Part shown: positions 1,991 through 42,773 of the stretch, one piece after another
How the letters are laid out: every line of letters begins with the position of its first letter
How positions within the stretch are numbered: the stretch's first letter is position 1
DNA from: Armatimonadota bacterium
GTDB taxonomy: Bacteria; Armatimonadota; SYMT01
DNA length: 64,000 nt
Assembly (NCBI GenBank): GCA_046292385.1
Contig: JBKBRF010000017.1
Location: 1 to 64,000 of the forward strand
Reading direction: 5' to 3'
Program-made: the position numbers and the translations under genes
The notes under the pieces: model-generated
What the model saw: only the letters and a program-made list of their open reading frames with translations
Told to the model about the DNA's origin: nothing
Databases searched by the model: none

Positions 1991-3505
1991 TCAGCGACCC
2001 TGGCCCGGGTGAGCGCTGGTATAGCGGAGGTTGTCCAGGTAGAAGACGCACGCCTTGCCGTTGTTGTCCTGCATGTTGAAGACGCCGAAGCGGTCCATCA
2101 CCGCTCCCTCGGCGCGGGCGCCCGGCTCGAGCGGCAGTGTGAGCGACTGCGCGCCGAGTCCTACCGTGAGCGCGCCGCTTCCGCCCGCGGCGGAAGGGTC
2201 ATAGCGGAGCGACCATTCGTAGCGGCGCCCATCCGGGTAGAAGAGCAGCTCCGGCCCACCGAACGCCGCGCCGCGCAGGCGGTAAGCCCCCGGCTCTCCC
2301 TCGCGGCGAGCGCGGGAGGTGCCGTACATCGGCGCGAAGAAGCGGCCGGCGGTGGAGAGGCTGTCGAGGTAGACTCCCACGAAGCTCTTCGGCGGCCAGC
2401 CCTGCTCCCGGGAGTTGAACCAGCCGAGGTGCATCCCGGAGTCGATGGAGAAGGCGGGGAACGCCAGGGTGCCGCTGGCGGAGAGCGGGTCATTCAGCGT
2501 GAGGGTGCCGACGTCGTCGCCGTAGTAGCCCTTGAGCTCCGGCTCCTGCACGCGCCAGGCCCGGCCACCCAGCTCGCCGCGCCCGCCGCCGGCATAGCGC
2601 GTGCGCGAGTAGCCGAAGTCGTTGGAGCCGTAGTGGGCGCGGTCGACCACCCGGGCGCGGTTACCCTGGCCTTCCCAGCGCGGATCGACGGAGAGATCGA
2701 TCCGCTCTCCGTTCACCACCAGGTCGTCGAAGTAGGCAGTCAGCTCGTTCCCCGGGAGCTGGCCGTTGAAGAAGCCGAAGCGGTCGATCCGCGCGCCCAG
2801 TTTCCGCAGCTCCGGCCGCAGCGGGTGGACCGTCTCCGCGCCATCGAAGACAAAGGTGATCGTCCCCGGCCCGGCCGGGTCGTATCGGAGCGACCAGGTG
2901 TGCCGCTGACCGTCCGGCGCCACGCGCAGGAGCTCACGGTGATCCAGCTCCCGCACGTTCCGCTCCTGGTCGCCGCCGCCCCGGTTCACGAAGGTGCCGC
3001 CGGCGGTCCAGAGCCGGGTGCCGTAGCTGATCTCCACCGTCGCCCCGTCCGGCTCGTTGTAGCCTTCCAGCCGGAAGCCGACGAAGTCGACAGGCCGCCA
3101 GCCCTGCTCCCGGTGGTTGAAGAAGCCGGCGAAGACGGTGCTGCCGTTCTCGTAGCCGACGGTGGTGGTCGACTGCGTGAGGGCGAGCGTGCCGCTGGCG
3201 CTGAAGGCGTCGTCGAAGGTGAGCGCCGGCAGCCGCCTGGCGTAGGAGGCCGGCGTGAGGCTCCGCCAGACCGTCCCGCCGATGCGGCCATAGCGGAGGC
3301 CCGCGGCGTCCCGGCGGTAGCCGAAGTCCTGCTGCTTCACCTTCGGCGGCAGGGAGATCCGGTTTCGCGCCGCGTCCCAGCCCGGATCGCGGTCGAACCG
3401 CTCCACCTTCTGCCAGAGCCGCCCTTCCCCGGCCGAAACTCCCGGGGTGGTGCCGCAGGCAACGCCGGTCGCGAGTAGTAAAGGGGCCAGTATCCAGAGC
3501 CGCAT
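1991..3505 (-). CDS. Putative lipoprotein with an internally duplicated domain
   Basis: Lipobox-like LLLATGVAC; two homologous halves (DFGY...SASGTL...FN.REQGW.P..FVG...WSLRYDP...DRFG.FN). Confidence 0.7.
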   Translation of the reverse strand: MRLWILAPLLLATGVACGTTPGVSAGEGRLWQKVERFDRDPGWDAARNRISLPPKVKQQDFGYRRDAAGLRYGRIGGTVWRSLTPASYARRLPALTFDDAFSASGTLALTQSTTTVGYENGSTVFAGFFNHREQGWRPVDFVGFRLEGYNEPDGATVEISYGTRLWTAGGTFVNRGGGDQERNVRELDHRELLRVAPDGQRHTWSLRYDPAGPGTITFVFDGAETVHPLRPELRKLGARIDRFGFFNGQLPGNELTAYFDDLVVNGERIDLSVDPRWEGQGNRARVVDRAHYGSNDFGYSRTRYAGGGRGELGGRAWRVQEPELKGYYGDDVGTLTLNDPLSASGTLAFPAFSIDSGMHLGWFNSREQGWPPKSFVGVYLDSLSTAGRFFAPMYGTSRARREGEPGAYRLRGAAFGGPELLFYPDGRRYEWSLRYDPSAAGGSGALTVGLGAQSLTLPLEPGARAEGAVMDRFGVFNMQDNNGKACVFYLDNLRYTSAHPGQGR

Positions 3506-38117: not shown

Positions 38118-38906
38118 ATGCGATTTCGCCTGCCGCTTCCGGCGACTCTCCTGGTCGCCCTCGCCTGCGCCGCGGTTCCCGCGCTCTCCGCCGCGCGGCC
38201 CGCGCCGATCCGCGCCGCCGCCACTCCGCAGATCTTTGGGATCTCCCCGGCGCGGGGAGAGCAGGGCGCCTCGCTGACGCTCGTCCTCCAGGGGACCCGC
38301 TTCGAGCACGGCGCGACCGTTAGCCTGGGAGAGGGGATCAGCGTGACGGAAGCGGTGGTGAGCGGGCGGGGAGTCCGGGCGCTGCTCGACCATATCCTGA
38401 CCCTGCGGATCGAGATCGCCGCGGACGCGGAGCCCGGCCCGCGGGATGTGACGGTCACCAACCCCGGCGGCGAGACCGCCGTCGCTCCCGCGGCCTTCGA
38501 GGTGGTCGCTCCACCCCCGGTGCCGCGGCCGGACCTGGCGGGCACCTGGAAGAAGGTGAAGGTCCGGAGCATCCCGGGCCGGCGGGGCGCGGAGGGCAGC
38601 ACCCTCTTCACCGGTACGCTGCAGGTCGCCAACTCCGGTGCCGCGGCGGCGCGCTCGTTCGTGGTGCGGTTCGTCGCGGCGGAGACCGCCGACGGTGAGG
38701 GCGCCCTCCCGCTCGGCAAGCCGAAGAAGGTGGCGCACCGCCTGAAGCCCGGCGCCCGCCACACCGTGAAGCTGAAGGCCCGGCTGCCGCGGAGCGCGCT
38801 CGATCCTACCGGGAAATACCTGCTGGCGCTCCTCGATTCCACCGATCGGGTGGAAGAGGGCGACGAGCAGAACAACGCCGTCGCCTTCGCCCTGCCGGTG
38901 CCGTAG
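38118..38906 (+). CDS. Exported protein with Ig-like (IPT) and CARDB-like domains
   Basis: Signal peptide; GPRDVTVTNPGG; VANSG...YLLALLDSTDRVEEGDEQNN. Confidence 0.75.
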   Translation: MRFRLPLPATLLVALACAAVPALSAARPAPIRAAATPQIFGISPARGEQGASLTLVLQGTRFEHGATVSLGEGISVTEAVVSGRGVRALLDHILTLRIEIAADAEPGPRDVTVTNPGGETAVAPAAFEVVAPPPVPRPDLAGTWKKVKVRSIPGRRGAEGSTLFTGTLQVANSGAAAARSFVVRFVAAETADGEGALPLGKPKKVAHRLKPGARHTVKLKARLPRSALDPTGKYLLALLDSTDRVEEGDEQNNAVAFALPVP

Positions 38907-38965
38907 CAGGTCTCCGAAGGCTCGCGCTCCTCTCGCGCCGGTGCTGAGACCCGGAAAAAAGCCTC

Positions 38966-39035
38966 TTGCGCCTCTGATATCGTGATGATATCATTCTGTC
39001 GTCGTGGTGACATCAGGGGCGAGGGCGGCCATACT
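38966..39035 (+). promoter_or_regulatory. Tandem sigma70 promoters overlapped by 11-bp phased TGATATCA-like operator boxes
   Basis: TTGCGC-N17-TATCAT (38966-38994, extended TGn) and GTGACA-N17-CATACT (39007-39035); boxes at 38975, 38986, 38997 and 39008. Confidence 0.7.
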
Positions 39036-39041
39036 GAGCGT

Positions 39042-39242
39042 ATGAGTGACTCGGCACCCCCCAAGAAACGGACGATGACGGCGGTCACCTATCCGAACCG
39101 CCTGCTGCACTACGACGACGACGAGGGAATGGCGCTGCTGCGCGAGATCGCGCGCCGGCACGGGCTCTCCCTCGCGGCGGCGCTGCGGATGCTCGTGAGA
39201 GAGGCCGCGGAGCGCCGCGGGATACGGAAGAAAACGGAATAG
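39042..39242 (+). CDS. Ribbon-helix-helix (CopG-like) DNA-binding protein
   Basis: 66 aa; beta segment, helix ALLREIARRH, GLS turn, helix LAAALRMLVREAA. Confidence 0.75.
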   Translation: MSDSAPPKKRTMTAVTYPNRLLHYDDDEGMALLREIARRHGLSLAAALRMLVREAAERRGIRKKTE

Positions 39243-39278
39243 GAGCCTATCCCTAGCGAGATCGGCTCTAGACTTTCG

Positions 39279-39348
39279 GCGCGGGCCGAAGTGCCTGGGT
39301 TCTCGTCTGCTAAACGAACCACCCCCAGGCGCACGTGCTTGCCCGCGC
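39279..39348 (+). ncRNA. Y-RNA-like A1 (Ro-binding stem; loop CUGCUAA)
   Basis: gcgcgggc-cg...cttgcccgcgc terminal stem, gtgcctggg/cccaggcgc upper stem. Confidence 0.75.
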
Positions 39349-39355
39349 ATCCTTT

Positions 39356-39477
39356 CCAGACGTAGCTCAACGGCAGAGCATCAGGTAAACCCTTCGGCGG
39401 TGACTTGCCCGGAGACGGGCCGGATGTTGAAGGTTAACGGCCCTTGAGGGGTGCAGGTTCGAATCCTGCCGTCTGGT
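39356..39477 (+). ncRNA. tRNA-shaped Y-RNA-like B1 (Ro helix replaces anticodon arm)
   Basis: Acceptor ccagacg/cgtctgg, D arm tagctc-aacggca-gagc, T arm gcagg-ttcgaat-cctgc; insert cttgcccg-gaga-cgggccg. Confidence 0.8.
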
Positions 39478-39584
39478 GTGAGATGGGCCGCTGCGAATCG
39501 GTTATCGGAGTTCAAGCCTTCCCGTCCCGACCTGTCGGGACGAGCCCACCGGGGGCACCCGATCGCGCTGCTTGCCTGTCTCGC
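39478..39584 (+). ncRNA. YrlA-like Y RNA C1
   Basis: gtgagatgggc-cg...cttgcctgtctcgc stem; interior T-loop-like ttcaagc hairpin, closed acceptor-like cgtcccga/tcgggacg, D-like agccc..gggc. Confidence 0.7.
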
Positions 39585-39588
39585 TTTG

Positions 39589-39656
39589 GAAGCGGGCCGG
39601 AGTGCCTGGGTTATCCTGTCACGATGAACCCCAGGCGCATGCAGCTTGCCTGCTTC
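39589..39656 (+). ncRNA. Y-RNA-like A2 (loop CUGUCAC)
   Basis: gaagcgggccggagtgcctgggttatc...cccaggcgc...cttgcctgcttc. Confidence 0.75.
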
Positions 39657-39689
39657 ACTCCTGGGGCTCTCCACGGAGCGGCCCCGGTT

Positions 39690-39812
39690 TCGGACGTAGC
39701 TCAGAGGTAGAGCACCAGGAAACCCCTTCGCTGCTCACTTGCCCGGAGACGGGCCGAAAGCTGAAGGTTACCTATACCCTGGCGGCCGCGGGTTCGAGTC
39801 CCGCCGTCCGGA
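39690..39812 (+). ncRNA. tRNA-shaped Y-RNA-like B2
   Basis: Acceptor tcggacg/cgtccgg, D arm tagctc-agaggta-gagc, T arm gcggg-ttcgagt-cccgc; insert acttgcccg-gaga-cgggccg identical to B1. Confidence 0.8.
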
Positions 39813-39840
39813 GTGTTCGCTCTCCTGGGAGCGGACTTTA

Positions 39841-39933
39841 GAGATGGGCCGCTGCGGCTCGCTTATCGGCACACAGGTGGGCTCGAGACCCACCACCCTT
39901 CGGGGTTGGCGAGCCGCGTCACTTGTCCATCTC
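39841..39933 (+). ncRNA. Y-RNA-like C2 (reduced YrlA-like)
   Basis: gagatgggc-cg...cttgtccatctc stem; ggtggg-ctcgaga-cccacc and accc-ttcg-gggt hairpins. Confidence 0.7.
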
Positions 39934-39939
39934 AGGTTA

Positions 39940-40100
39940 GAACCGACCCCGTGGGCAAAACGGGCTGCGCCTGGCTGTGAGGTGCGGATTTGTCGTCGCG
40001 GCGGAACGTCCGATATTCGTCCATATCGACCGTCCCGCCGCTCCTAATCTCCGCCCCTCTCGCTCAGGCTCGCCGTACCTTTGCCTACGCGGACCGGTTC
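39940..40100 (+). ncRNA. Unassigned long irregular hairpin RNA
   Basis: Nested pairings gaaccg/cggttc, cgtgggcaaa/tttgcctacg, gcctgg/tcaggc, gcgga/tccgc, gcggcgg/ccgccgc, cgatat/atatcg. Confidence 0.5.
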
Positions 40101-40103
40101 CTG

Positions 40104-40171
40104 GAAGCGGGCCGGAGTGCCTGGGTTATCTTAGGGAGATAACACCCAGGCGCGCGGAGCTTGCCCGCTTC
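40104..40171 (+). ncRNA. Y-RNA-like A3 (loop UUAGGGA)
   Basis: gaagcgggccggagtgcctgggttatc...gataac.cccaggcgc...cttgcccgcttc. Confidence 0.75.
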
Positions 40172-40233
40172 ACCTGTCGGGGTGCGGGGGACAACGGGGT
40201 CTCCCGCACCCTCCGGCCGAGGAGGGCCGTGCC

Positions 40234-41868
40234 ATGACCCAGTACCTGAAGAACGTTTTTTCCGCGCGTCAGACGCCGCAGTCGGAGCCGATCCCCGGCT
40301 CCGGGCAGGTGCCGAACAGCGCGGGCGGGTTCGCCTGGCAGGTCGACGATTGGGCCCGCCTCGATCGCTTCCTGATCCTCGGCAGCGAGGGTGGGTCGTA
40401 CTACGCCTCCGAGCGGAAGCTGACGCTGGAGAACGCGGACGCCGTGGTCCGCTGCCTGGAGGCGGACGGCGAGCGGCTGGTCCGCCGGGTGGTCGAGATC
40501 AGCGAGTCCGGCCGGGCGCCGAAGAACGACCCGGCGATCTTCGCCCTGGCGCTGGCGTGCTCCTTCGGCGACGAGCGGGCGCGCGCGGCGGCGTTCGCGG
40601 CGGTGCCGCGGGTCTGCCGGATCGGGACGCACCTGTTCCACTTCGCGGAGTTCGTAAACGGGATGCGCGGCTGGGGACGCGGGCTGCGGCGCGCCGTGGC
40701 GGCCTGGTACCAGGAGAAGCCGGTGGGGGCGCTTGCGCTGCAGGCGGTGAAGTACCAGCAGCGGGACCGGTGGAGCCACCGGGACCTGCTCCGGCTGGCG
40801 CACCCGGTGCCGGCGGACGAGGACCGCACCGCCCTCTACCGCTGGGTGACCCGCGGGTGGGAGCCGGAGCGGGCGGACCGGTTCGGCCGCGAGGGCGAGC
40901 TGGCGCTGGTCGGCGGCTTCGAGGCGGTGAAGGCGGCCGCCACGGCGGCGGAAGTGGCGGAGTGCATCCGCACCTACCGGCTGCCGCGGGAGGCGGTCCC
41001 GACGCAGTGGCTGACCGACCGCGAGGTGTGGCGGGCGCTGCTGGAGGAGATGCCGATGACCGCGCTGATCCGGAACCTGGCGACGCTGACCCGCGTGGGG
41101 CTGGTGACGCCCGGCTCCGTGGGGACCCGGAAGGTGGTGGAGCAGCTCGGCGACCGGGAGCGGCTCCGGAAGGCGCGCGTGCACCCGATCCAGGTGCTCT
41201 CCGCGCTGAAGACCTACGCCTCCGGCAAGGGCGTGCGCTCCGACCAGAGCTGGGCGCCGGTGCCGCAGGTGGTCGACGCGCTCGACGCGGCGTTCTACGC
41301 GGCGTTCCGGAACGTGGAGCCGACCGGCAAGCGGTGGCTGCTGGCGCTCGACGTCTCCGGCTCGATGGAGTGCGGAGTGATCGCCGGGTGCCCGGGGCTG
41401 ACGCCGCGGGTCGCATCCGCCGCCATGGCGCTGGTCACGGCGGCGGTGGAGAAGCAGTACACGGCGGTAGCGTTCGCCTCCGAGGGGACCTTCGGGTGCC
41501 GGAGCGGGAGCGGGCTGCGGCCCCTGGCGCTCTCCTCGCGACAGCGCCTGGACGACGTGGTGAAGCTGACGCAGGCGCTGCCGTTCGGCGGCACCGACTG
41601 CGCGCTGCCGATGCTCTACGCGCTGGAGCGGAGGCTCGAGGTCGACTGCTTCGTGGTCTACACCGACTCGGAGACGTGGGCCGGAAGCGTCCACCCGGCG
41701 CAGGCGCTGCGGCAGTACCGGGAGTGGATGGGGATCCCGGCCCGGCTGATCGTGGTCGGCATGGTCTCCAACGGGTTTAGCATCGCGGACCCGAACGACC
41801 CCGGCATGCTTGACGTGGTCGGCTTCGACACCGCCACGCCGCAGCTGATGACGGACTTCGCCCGCTGA
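40234..41868 (+). CDS. rsr: Ro60/Rsr TROVE-domain RNA-binding protein
   Basis: NSAGGF, RLDRFLILGSEGGSYY, KYQQRDRWSHRDLLRLAHP, MPMTALIRNL, vWA MIDAS DVSGSM, GGTDC, YTDSET, DVVGFD; SD ggagg. Confidence 0.96.
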   Translation: MTQYLKNVFSARQTPQSEPIPGSGQVPNSAGGFAWQVDDWARLDRFLILGSEGGSYYASERKLTLENADAVVRCLEADGERLVRRVVEISESGRAPKNDPAIFALALACSFGDERARAAAFAAVPRVCRIGTHLFHFAEFVNGMRGWGRGLRRAVAAWYQEKPVGALALQAVKYQQRDRWSHRDLLRLAHPVPADEDRTALYRWVTRGWEPERADRFGREGELALVGGFEAVKAAATAAEVAECIRTYRLPREAVPTQWLTDREVWRALLEEMPMTALIRNLATLTRVGLVTPGSVGTRKVVEQLGDRERLRKARVHPIQVLSALKTYASGKGVRSDQSWAPVPQVVDALDAAFYAAFRNVEPTGKRWLLALDVSGSMECGVIAGCPGLTPRVASAAMALVTAAVEKQYTAVAFASEGTFGCRSGSGLRPLALSSRQRLDDVVKLTQALPFGGTDCALPMLYALERRLEVDCFVVYTDSETWAGSVHPAQALRQYREWMGIPARLIVVGMVSNGFSIADPNDPGMLDVVGFDTATPQLMTDFAR

Positions 41869-41961
41869 GGGATGAAGGATGAGGGATGAAGGATGAGCTC
41901 GAGCCGGTGCTCAGCGGGCTCATCCTCTTCCTTTAGCCTTTTGACTTTAGCCTTCTGCCTT
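41866..41961. repeat. Heptamer tandem repeats (GGATGAA/GGATGAG and CTTTAGC-like) between convergent genes
   Basis: gagggatgaaggatgagggatgaaggatgag and ctttagccttttgactttagccttctgcctt. Confidence 0.6.
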
Positions 41962-42773
41962 CACATCCCCACTCCCGTGTAGTGCTTCAGGCCCCAGCGC
42001 CAGGCGAGGCGGGAGAGGAGGTAGACGGTGACTAGCCAGAAGGCGAGCATTCCGAGGCCGAAGCCGACCTCGTCCGGCGGTACCCGGCCGAGGAAGAGAT
42101 CGGCGGCGAAGGAGAGGGTGTAGCGGAACGGCAGGTAGCGCGCCGCCTCTTCCACGGCGCCGGGGAGCAGGGCGAGCGGCACCACCTCGCCCGAGAGAAA
42201 GCTCGCCGGCATGTAGTAGAAGAGGAAGAGGCTCCGCACCTCGGTGAACCGCAGCGCCAGCAGGCCGAGCGTGTAGACCAGGCAGAACGAGAGCAGGTGT
42301 CCCCCCGCCACCGCCAGCCAGAACGCCCACCCGAGGTGGTAGCCCTCCCAGCGCACGTACTGGTGGAAGACGAGCAGCCACACCCCGAAGACCGGGATGA
42401 ACAGCACCGCTCGCAGCAGCCGCCAGGAGATGCTCCCCGCGAAGTGATACGCCATGTAGCTGAACGGCCGCGTCAGCATGGCGGAGAAGCGCCCCTCCCG
42501 GATCTCGAACTCGATGTCCCACTGCGCGTGGCTGATCATCAGGTTCTTCAGGCAGAGGATCACCAGGTAGTAGGTGACCATCTGGCCGGGCGAGAGGCCC
42601 TGGATGGTGGCCCGCCCGCCGTAGCTCGCCAGCCAGACCAGCGGCAGCAGGATCGCGGGGACCGCGTCGGTCAGCATCCAGATCACCGCCTGCCCGCGGT
42701 AGGTCAGGCTATCCGCCATGTAGACGGAGAAGACGGTGAGGAACTTCCGCAGGCCGCGGGCGGGGGAGGTCAT
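41961..42773 (-). CDS. ABC-2 family (DUF990-type) permease
   Basis: EIREGRFSAMLTRP, FLSGEVVPLALLP, LPFRY. Confidence 0.88.
   Translation of the reverse strand: MTSPARGLRKFLTVFSVYMADSLTYRGQAVIWMLTDAVPAILLPLVWLASYGGRATIQGLSPGQMVTYYLVILCLKNLMISHAQWDIEFEIREGRFSAMLTRPFSYMAYHFAGSISWRLLRAVLFIPVFGVWLLVFHQYVRWEGYHLGWAFWLAVAGGHLLSFCLVYTLGLLALRFTEVRSLFLFYYMPASFLSGEVVPLALLPGAVEEAARYLPFRYTLSFAADLFLGRVPPDEVGFGLGMLAFWLVTVYLLSRLAWRWGLKHYTGVGM

Follow-up and report, generated by a model that had tools for sequence, protein, structure and literature searches.

Seven predicted Y RNAs in three builds, one of them in tRNA order, upstream of rsr in an Armatimonadota bacterium

Our analysis concerns a 64,000-nucleotide (nt) stretch of DNA from an Armatimonadota bacterium (GenBank assembly GCA_046292385.1, contig JBKBRF010000017.1, positions 1 to 64,000 of the forward strand; hereafter the window) and the region directly upstream of its rsr gene, which encodes the bacterial orthologue of Ro60. 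Here we propose that the leader of rsr probably encodes seven Y RNAs for Ro60/Rsr, which share one docking module and occur in three builds, designated A, B and C. As read from their predicted pairing, the two B units are a circular permutation of the published YrlA RNA: YrlA is open at the Ro60 stem and closed at the acceptor, while B has an open acceptor stem and the order of a tRNA. The identification as Y RNAs rests on the anatomy of the units, on covariation and on linkage to rsr, and from there we infer the transcripts, their cleavage, the addition of CCA, the binding of Rsr and the partners of the RNAs.

Y RNAs contact Ro60 through a conserved bulged helix, and partners are recruited or gated by the remainder of the molecule. 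Yrn1 of Deinococcus tethers Rsr to PNPase. Where one Ro60 has several Y RNAs, the standard model treats them as interchangeable adaptors. In the published view most YrlA RNAs cannot carry a free CCA end, and the published model for their origin derives YrlA from two adjacent plain tRNAs.

Results

Seven units with a common docking module precede rsr

The gene downstream of the array is present as a single copy in its genome and carries the TROVE and vWA_Ro60 domains of Ro60 (Table 1), which bears out its assignment in an earlier, sequence-only reading of this DNA. Its product scores 609 bits on the NCBIfam Rsr model (NF041674), of which the equivalog cut-off is 900, and its closest named relatives are proteins from metagenome-assembled genomes (MAGs) of Armatimonadota.

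Seven units in the order A1-B1-C1-A2-B2-C2-x-A3 span positions 39279-40171 (+), directly 5' of rsr. They lie 62-955 nt upstream of its start on the same strand, within the 4 kb described for Y RNAs by Chen et al. (2014). The motif GGGCCG-N9-GSTTMHC occurs seven times in the window, always on the + strand (starts at 39283, 39417, 39485, 39594, 39751, 39846 and 40109), against 0.13 on average and at most 2 in shuffled sequence. With looser spacing (N8-11) the whole genome of about 7 Mb holds 48 matches, compared with 48 for a reversed-pattern control, and seven of the 48 fall within the 850 bp of the array; the motif is thus at chance level elsewhere and clustered here. A partner strand CTTG(C/T)C was found for each of the seven units (39338, 39404, 39571, 39645, 39738, 39922 and 40160), and in the B units it lies 13 nt 5' of GGGCCG instead of 3'. 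The A and C units fold clearly better than their shuffles (z-scores of -3.3 for A1, -3.1 for C1, -3.4 for A2, -4.5 for C2 and -4.8 for A3). The sequence-only reading had set out the same seven units, their order, the GGGCCG register and a CUUG(C/U)C strand for each, and the motif counts and fold scores uphold it in all of these points; its array end at 41868 has to be corrected, since this is the end of rsr and the array ends at 40171.

The docking module common to all seven units consists of a closing stem, a GGGCCG/CUUG(C/U)C helix with a bulged C, a small internal loop and an upper stem of about nine pairs, the 3' strand of which ends in the GG of GGUUAUC and is followed by UUAUC-like bases. 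The bulged-C helix described for Ro60 binding by Chen et al. (2014), which has a GGUCCGA-like 5' strand, is present in every unit as GGGCCG/CUUGYC. The proposal of a duplicated A-B-C cassette also holds: B1 and B2 are 82% identical over 83 nt, C1 and C2 90% over 29 nt, and A1 and A2 84% over 32 nt. On these identities the A-B-C duplication is old.

Table 1. Features of the rsr leader region, with positions in the window.
Feature	Position	Strand	Evidence or remark
Sigma-70-like promoter match, GTGACA-17-CATACT	39007-39035	+	Consensus match only
Small open reading frame (ORF), 66 aa, ATG at 39042, weakly ribbon-helix-helix (RHH)-like	39042-39242	+	RHH_1 and FitA-like_RHH, E 0.03-0.06, sub-threshold
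A1, predicted minimal hairpin Y RNA	39279-39348	+	Model R2, 72.2 bits; fold; covariation in the A-type alignment
B1, predicted tRNA-order Y RNA	39356-39477	+	Rfam tRNA, 49.6 bits with a 56-nt insert; model R1, 92.7 bits
C1, predicted Y RNA with docking module and three-hairpin apical domain	39478-39584	+	R2, 33.5 bits; 11 contiguous closing pairs
A2, predicted minimal hairpin Y RNA	39589-39656	+	R2, 70.8 bits; RF01656, 32.5 bits, E 2e-4
Hairpin between A2 and B2, 7-bp stem, then UUU	39661-39687	+	Sequence reading; no other genomic copy
B2, predicted tRNA-order Y RNA	39690-39812	+	Rfam tRNA, 50.2 bits with a 58-nt insert; R1, 100.9 bits
Hairpin between B2 and C2, 8-bp stem, 6-nt loop, then UUU	39815-39836	+	Sequence reading
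C2, predicted Y RNA with docking module (partner CUUGUC) and two apical hairpins	39841-39933	+	R2, 41.1 bits
Inserted repeat of about 170 nt splitting the array	39932-40100	+	80% identical over 173 nt to G000:C55:13556-13728
A3, predicted minimal hairpin Y RNA	40104-40171	+	R2, 71.6 bits; RF01656, 32.1 bits; 62 nt before the rsr start codon
12-bp hairpin, no U run after, between A3 and the AGGAGG ribosome-binding site (40220-40225)	40180-40211	+	Sequence reading
rsr, bacterial Ro60 orthologue, 544 aa	40234-41868	+	Pfam TROVE, 161 bits; vWA_Ro60, 214 bits

The B units have the anatomy of a tRNA with the docking module in the anticodon loop

Three architectures had been recognized in the sequence-only reading, and they are confirmed here; what it missed is that the B units are complete tRNA look-alikes. 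Both B1 and B2 match the Rfam tRNA model (RF00005) from end to end and above its gathering score of 29, with the insert placed exactly at the anticodon loop. The seven-base loop and its anticodon are absent, and 56 nt (B1) or 58 nt (B2) stand in their place. B1 comprises an open 7-bp acceptor stem (CCAGACG/CGUCUGG), a D arm, an equivalent of the anticodon stem and a T arm, and ends in the discriminator U with no encoded CCA; its insert reads CUUGCCCG-GAGA-CGGGCCG plus GGUUAAC. In B2 the acceptor is UCGGACG/CGUCCGG, the insert likewise holds CUUGCCCG-GAGA-CGGGCCG, and the discriminator is A. The insert is the docking module turned round, in that CUUGCCCG is followed by a GAGA loop, CGGGCCG, the upper-stem strand and GGUUA(A/C)C. 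Because CCA is encoded by just 7 of the 56 tRNA genes of this genome, CCA-less B genes are normal here; among 24 B units, one encodes CCA. The B units are tightly packed against their neighbours, with 7 nt between A1 and B1, none between B1 and C1, and gaps of often 0-17 nt in relatives.

The A units, at 68-70 nt, consist of just the docking module and a small loop and are the most animal-like build. In A1 the bulged GGGCCG/CUUGCC helix stands on a lower stem and is followed by an internal loop, a 9-bp upper stem and a loop that starts with UUCUC. C1, which begins at the base right after the B1 discriminator, has a T-loop-like UUCAAGC loop in the first of its apical hairpins, and the two apical loops of C2 are CUCGAGA and UUCG. 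Neither A nor C units have a D arm. A unit at another locus (L024, about 3091-3245, on a minus-strand locus, -401 from the region end) resembles a pared-down B layout, with a looped docking module and an acceptor-like terminal stem (GAGGACG/CGUCCUC) and no D or T arm.

The helices covary across relatives

Units were first collected by a regular expression demanding GGGCCG...GSTTMHC. In an alignment of 18 A-type units from 14 loci, 94.4% of positions expected to pair do so and 11 of 18 pairs show compensatory changes, a level reached by 0 of 500 shuffles; slid controls were 27-49% paired. The A model (R2), which was trained on these 18 rows, finds 54 matches in 31 sources; in this open-type set, which includes the training rows and was aligned by fitting to the model itself, pairing is 93.3%, covariation is 0.64 compared with 0.20, and all 54 lie on the rsr strand. 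The docking helix and the two stems flanking it covary both in these 54 units and in 21 B-type units.

As candidate B units we took all motifs that are preceded by a D arm and followed by a T arm (n = 25); in 24 of the 25 the flanking heptamers form all seven acceptor pairs. The final set of 21 holds 18 units from loci of the phylum or titled Armatimonadota, two from Caldilineaceae and one from Entotheonella, three Actinomycetota rows having been dropped. Within it the acceptor is 100% paired with covariation at 7/7 pairs, the T stem is 99% paired with covariation at 4/5, and the whole structure is 96.5% paired, which 0 of 500 shuffles reach. Positions U8, A14, the D-loop G, G53, U54, U55, C56, A58 and C61 are invariant or nearly so (T loop GUUCGA..C); B1 and B2 possess the D and T arms with conserved elbow nucleotides that characterize YrlA-type RNAs. 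The docking strands are 3-30 nt apart and joined by 5-7 contiguous closing pairs. These 21 units show the B layout conserved, with covarying pairs, in Armatimonadota, in a Caldilineaceae MAG and in an Entotheonella MAG.

The units are tied to rsr

The motif is found 5' of rsr and on its strand in 14 of 15 regions from the phylum, with no match on the other strand, and in 14 of 16 loci of named MAGs from several phyla, with one match on the other strand; by a crude motif count, two Capsulimonadaceae MAGs have seven units and a Caldilineaceae MAG has eight. In the genome of the window the B model (R1) hits B1 and B2 alone, while ordinary tRNAs score at most 52 bits, and R2 at E <=1 gives five hits, all within the array. 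A sample of 151 genomes of the phylum includes 34 with rsr. R1 (E <=1e-13) yields 41 hits in 23 of the 151 genomes and R2 (E <=1e-3) 45 hits in 24. Hits of either model are confined to rsr carriers, of which 30 of 34 have one or both, and none of the 117 genomes lacking rsr has any. Of these hits, 39/41 for R1 and 43/45 for R2 lie within 1.8 kb upstream of rsr on the same strand. R1 also has six hits in five genomes from other phyla, each of them at the rsr locus.

Four hits lie elsewhere. For R1 these are a contig-end case in G028 and a B-like unit of 66 bits at G050:C1:2682244-2682380, 1.7 Mb from rsr; for R2 they are A-like units on another contig (G062:C28:68509-68580) and just downstream of rsr (G087:C3:66118-66185).

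The covarying shared helix, the linkage to the rsr strand and the restriction of hits to rsr genomes are the reasons for which we regard the units as probable Y RNAs for Ro60/Rsr, as had first been suggested from the window sequence. An absence of such units near other rsr genes had been named in the sequence-only reading as evidence that would count against it; such units do precede rsr, both in relatives and in other phyla.

A number of points weigh against this interpretation. The support is computational, and transcript ends, processing and Rsr binding are predictions. The fold scores of B1 and B2 are modest (z of -2.0 and -1.1), and unconstrained minimum-free-energy folds miss some of the helices. 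In the region of the GNCGAAN0-1G motif of Chen et al. (2014) the fit is exact for A1 (GCCGAAG) and for no other unit (GCCGGAG in A2 and A3, GCCGGAU in B1, GCCGAAA in B2, GCCGCUG in C1 and C2). The invariance of the GGGCCG...GSTTMHC bases in the alignments arises in part by selection, because the regular expression demanded them. R1 was trained on 24 rows, three of which (L046, L047 and L054) were later reassigned, so that its calibration is rough, and the large-scale searches with R1 and R2 were run with the stricter filters of Infernal. Sampled genomes of one phylum are kin, and the 0 of 117 therefore overstates independence; the counts are descriptive and carry no test. Tandem arrays allow both registers to be drawn, and a Caldilineaceae unit (L052) and the unit L022_-589 are ambiguous in this respect. 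No promoter or terminator could be convincingly placed in the array region (38850-42000 scanned), and with the 170-nt insert in its midst the array may form two transcription units, A3 and rsr being apart from the rest. Twenty sequencing runs contain part of the stretch, one of them from RNA (X20, share 0.06). The contigs from this RNA library, which run from the small ORF into A1, from A2 into B2 and from C2 to a joined A unit, are 88-95% alike and come from relatives; given this origin and the possibility of DNA carry-over, they provide no evidence either way on transcripts, ends or strand.

Other explanations for the units

Some units could act in cis instead of as separate RNAs, with A3 serving as an Rsr-binding site in the leader of the rsr mRNA and feeding back on translation or stability. 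The position of A3 speaks for this: it ends 62 nt before the start codon, with the 12-bp hairpin and the ribosome-binding site next, it is set apart from the other six units by the 170-nt insert, and in seven loci of named MAGs (L040, L041, L042, L043, L049, L052 and L055) about 27-70 nt separate the predicted start from the end of the closest model hit. The same A-type hairpin, however, also occurs far from the start codon (A1 and A2), downstream of rsr (G087) and on another contig (G062:C28); the Y RNAs already described upstream of rsr arise by cleavage of precursors (Chen et al., 2014), and no pairing of A3 with the ribosome-binding site was found. We consider a role in cis unlikely, and it would be compatible with the array encoding Y RNAs.

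A second explanation holds that the B units are canonical permuted YrlA RNAs misread in register, an artefact of tandem copies. Such a misreading is real in three Actinomycetota loci (L046, L047 and L054), where the supposed B units were rejected as the D half of one permuted YrlA joined to the T half of the next. In these loci the strand taken for the 5' acceptor is preceded by a T arm at a distance of 26-27 nt, and the docking strands, separated by 42-48 nt, form only 3-4 closing pairs; in L047 the better pairing of each docking strand is with the partner of its own unit. Conversely, tandem B units in G096 and G050 yield weak matches to the YrlA model (RF02553) in the shifted register, from which we conclude that both layouts amount to the same cyclic arrangement, opened at different points. 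In the window, by contrast, the docking strands of the B units are joined by GAGA alone, with no T arm before the unit and no D arm after it, and B1 sits between A1 and C1; the GAGA loop and these neighbours leave no other register possible for B1. Among the 21 aligned B units, 19 have no T arm just 5' of the acceptor 5' strand, the two exceptions being tandem or tRNA-adjacent, and ten loci (L019, L021, L023, L024, L025, L026, L031, L005, L041 and L050) hold a single B unit with no neighbour from which to borrow a half. Furthermore, RF02553 detects permuted units at four other loci (35-41 bits) and finds nothing at the window locus (E <=1), at 38900-40300 (E <=10) or in the genome of the window (E <=0.001). 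A misread register is thus highly improbable for the B units of the window.

No genome of the 151 reaches the RF02553 gathering score of 69 bits, and most weak matches are unlinked to rsr. Since the model finds no rsr-linked RNA of the phylum above threshold, these loci go unannotated, or are half-called as odd tRNAs. Four rsr genomes with no R1 match (G015, G043, G073 and G123) have sub-threshold RF02553 matches adjoining rsr, so that both layouts are present within the phylum, in different lineages.

The resemblance to tRNA raises the further question of whether the B units are tRNA genes with an intron-like insert, or decayed pseudogenes, in which the Ro60-like motif is incidental. In favour of this are the full-length match of about 50 bits to the tRNA model, with the insert exactly at the anticodon loop, and the real tRNA genes that lie in or beside the Y RNA rows at some loci (L022 and L023). 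Yet the insert is the conserved part, with GGGCCG, GGUUA and CUUGCC kept across phyla, and in many relatives the upper docking stem replaces the anticodon stem, such that an anticodon loop could not be restored. The acceptor and T stems covary and are hence under selection, not decaying. The B units occur in rsr genomes, beside rsr, and in no others, and ARAGORN calls no tRNA in the window. We judge this explanation to have as slight a chance as a misread register. Least credible of all is that the units are structured repeats of the REP (repetitive extragenic palindromic) or MITE (miniature inverted-repeat transposable element) kind that lie before rsr by chance and have no RNA function: they are repeated and palindromic, and one true repeat element is inserted in the array, but no copies exist elsewhere in the 7-Mb genome, in 31 sources they always have the same orientation with respect to rsr, the helices are maintained by compensatory changes as the sequence drifts, and the motif is the known Ro60-binding helix.

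Comparison with known Y RNAs

Published YrlA RNAs run from the Ro60 site through V, the T arm, a closed acceptor hairpin and the D arm to the Ro60 partner strand (Chen et al., 2014; PMC4201824). The same study describes Y RNAs as lying within 4 kb of rsr on its strand and as processed from precursors, gives cases of several in a row beside rsr, reports that the YrlA of Mycobacterium smegmatis is cut by RNase P and CCA-tailed, and lists in its Table S1 one putative YrlA from an Armatimonadetes species, 128 nt long and 382 nt from Ro. A structure of YrlA is described in a preprint (Wang et al., 2018; bioRxiv 10.1101/312249).

The B units resemble YrlA (RF02553; Salmonella Typhimurium and M. smegmatis) in their position beside rsr on the same strand, in combining a Ro60-docking stem with a tRNA-like domain, in their near-invariant D and T arms (GUAGCUCA..AGAGC and GGUUCGA.UCC) and in the YUAY that follows the docking module. 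They differ in order. YrlA proceeds as docking 5' strand, V, T, closed acceptor, D and docking 3' strand and has its ends in the Ro60 stem, whereas B proceeds as acceptor 5' strand, D, docking 3' strand, GAGA, docking 5' strand, V, T and acceptor 3' strand. In Deinococcus radiodurans a row of RNAs upstream of rsr (Yrn1, Yrn2 and RNAs a, b and d) is made as a polycistronic precursor that also holds a real tRNA (Chen et al., 2014), and both strands of the Ro60 helix are kept in the units of our array as they are there; in the window there are seven units, of three builds. Yrn1 has its docking stem at the acceptor position and a closed anticodon-like arm (Chen et al., 2014), while B has an open 7-bp acceptor and the docking module at the anticodon position. 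The A units are comparable to Yrn2 and to YrlB of M. smegmatis and Salmonella, which are simple long hairpins, and the C units to YrlB in view of its possible T arm (Chen et al., 2014).

The register is also that of the animal Y RNAs and nematode stem-bulge RNAs (RF00019 and RF01656), in which GGUCCG or GGGCCG is followed by nine bases and GGUUAUC and is paired, with a bulged C, to CUUGAC or CUUGCC; our array units are bacterial and linked to rsr. A2 and A3 align to RF01656 (consensus CGGUCCGGaGucgaUGGGUUAUC ... CUUGACCG) with E of about 2e-4 and scores below the gathering value of 38, and the CGGUCCGGaGucgaUGGGUUAUC strand supports the earlier suggestion that the register is shared with animal-type Y RNAs. 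The stem-bulge RNAs are homologues of Y RNAs. RF00019, like RF02553, gave no match on the window (E <=10). A-type units of relatives do pass this gathering score (L005 1094-1163 with 39.4 bits and L021 3261-3329 with 38.2 bits), and automatic annotation could therefore label them as nematode RNAs. From the sequences, we take the resemblance to be that of a shared Ro60-binding module and not of family membership.

Y RNAs in rows, mimicry of tRNA and polycistronic precursors have all been published, and the array as such is therefore not new; seven units in three builds are at the upper end and no difference in kind. A native-order Y RNA with an open acceptor was not found in the main text of Chen et al. 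(2014), in passages and the Discussion of Wang et al. (2018) or in full-text searches, which cover the literature in part, and we provisionally regard the layout of the B units as a new form of the YrlA kind. The b7a-tRNA (band-7-associated tRNA) of Burroughs and Aravind (2016) goes without mention of a Ro60-docking insert in the passage of Wang et al. (2018) that describes it.

Flanking elements

Two promoter-like sites were found in 38850-42000, compared with 0.2 in shuffles, and the match at 39007-39035 is a possible start of a transcript running into the array. Its -10 element ends 7 nt before the ATG of the small ORF, which may thus be leaderless and self-regulated. Just before this ORF, between 38975 and 39045, the sequence TGATATC occurs twice as a direct repeat and overlaps promoter-like sites that diverge. 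The sequence-only reading called it an RHH gene; the ORF is present, and its RHH matches stay below threshold. As a conserved regulator it was rejected, since tblastn against 29 other rsr-upstream regions gave nothing at E <1.

The hairpin placed between C2 and A3 in that reading proves to be the inserted repeat of about 170 nt, and three additional small hairpins are present in and after the array (Table 1). The insert has inverted-repeat-like ends (AGAACC.. and ..GGTTCT), a conserved internal imperfect palindrome of 44 nt and a weak terminator-like site at 39965-39987. Its second copy, on another contig (L070, about 1557-1729), lies directly upstream of a gene for a secreted protein of the amidohydrolase family. 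The insert may represent a miniature mobile element, or else a regulatory leader that the two places share.

A linkage of the array to rtcB was considered and rejected, as RtcB is encoded on another contig (C12:10616-11845). At six loci of Actinomycetota MAGs (L046, L047, L048, L051, L054 and L055) and at L022 (1459-2535), at least ten ordinary tRNA genes in a row flank rsr and the Y RNAs, in some cases on both sides. Inside the Y RNA row of L005 (943-1085), a 47-bit match to the tRNA model has, in place of the anticodon loop, an AT-rich perfect hairpin of about 70 nt and no Ro60 motif.

Discussion

Our data suggest a model for the array in which it would be transcribed together with rsr as a precursor and then cut apart. 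The B units would be excised in the manner of a tRNA, by RNase P at the 5' end, by tRNA 3' processing and by the addition of CCA. As the units around B1 abut at distances of 0 and 7 nt, excision of B would also trim the ends of its neighbours. A B gene that lacks CCA would be tailed like any tRNA, and the product would be a Ro60-bound RNA with a free acceptor end. With the shared module each mature RNA would attach to the outer face of Rsr, leaving its variable domain to set the partner that is tethered to Rsr; candidates are PNPase, as in Deinococcus, and for B a protein that binds the tRNA elbow or the acceptor end.

A more far-reaching possibility, which we put forward as speculative and on balance doubtful, is that the B units represent a widespread and distinct class of Y RNA. 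Such RNAs would go through exactly the maturation of a tRNA (RNase P, 3' trimming and CCA), have a free and possibly chargeable acceptor, and release the neighbouring Y RNAs by the same cuts; the tRNA-order form would be ancestral, and the permuted YrlA derived from it through a register shift in tandem copies. By this route, which is conjecture and simpler than the published one, a docking hairpin for Ro60 would have arisen within the anticodon arm of one tRNA, and YrlA would have followed by the register shift. If true, ancestry of the tRNA-order form would replace the published derivation of YrlA from two plain tRNAs, and the B layout provides a concrete intermediate for the rise of the permuted RNA.

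Since 2014 it has been asked for what reason bacterial Y RNAs mimic tRNA and which molecules bind the tRNA-like domain. A conserved native-order form with a perfect open 7-bp acceptor makes several answers testable, namely that these RNAs may be cut by RNase P, that they may be tailed with CCA, that they may be charged, and that they may deliver Ro60 to tRNA-handling enzymes or to the ribosome.

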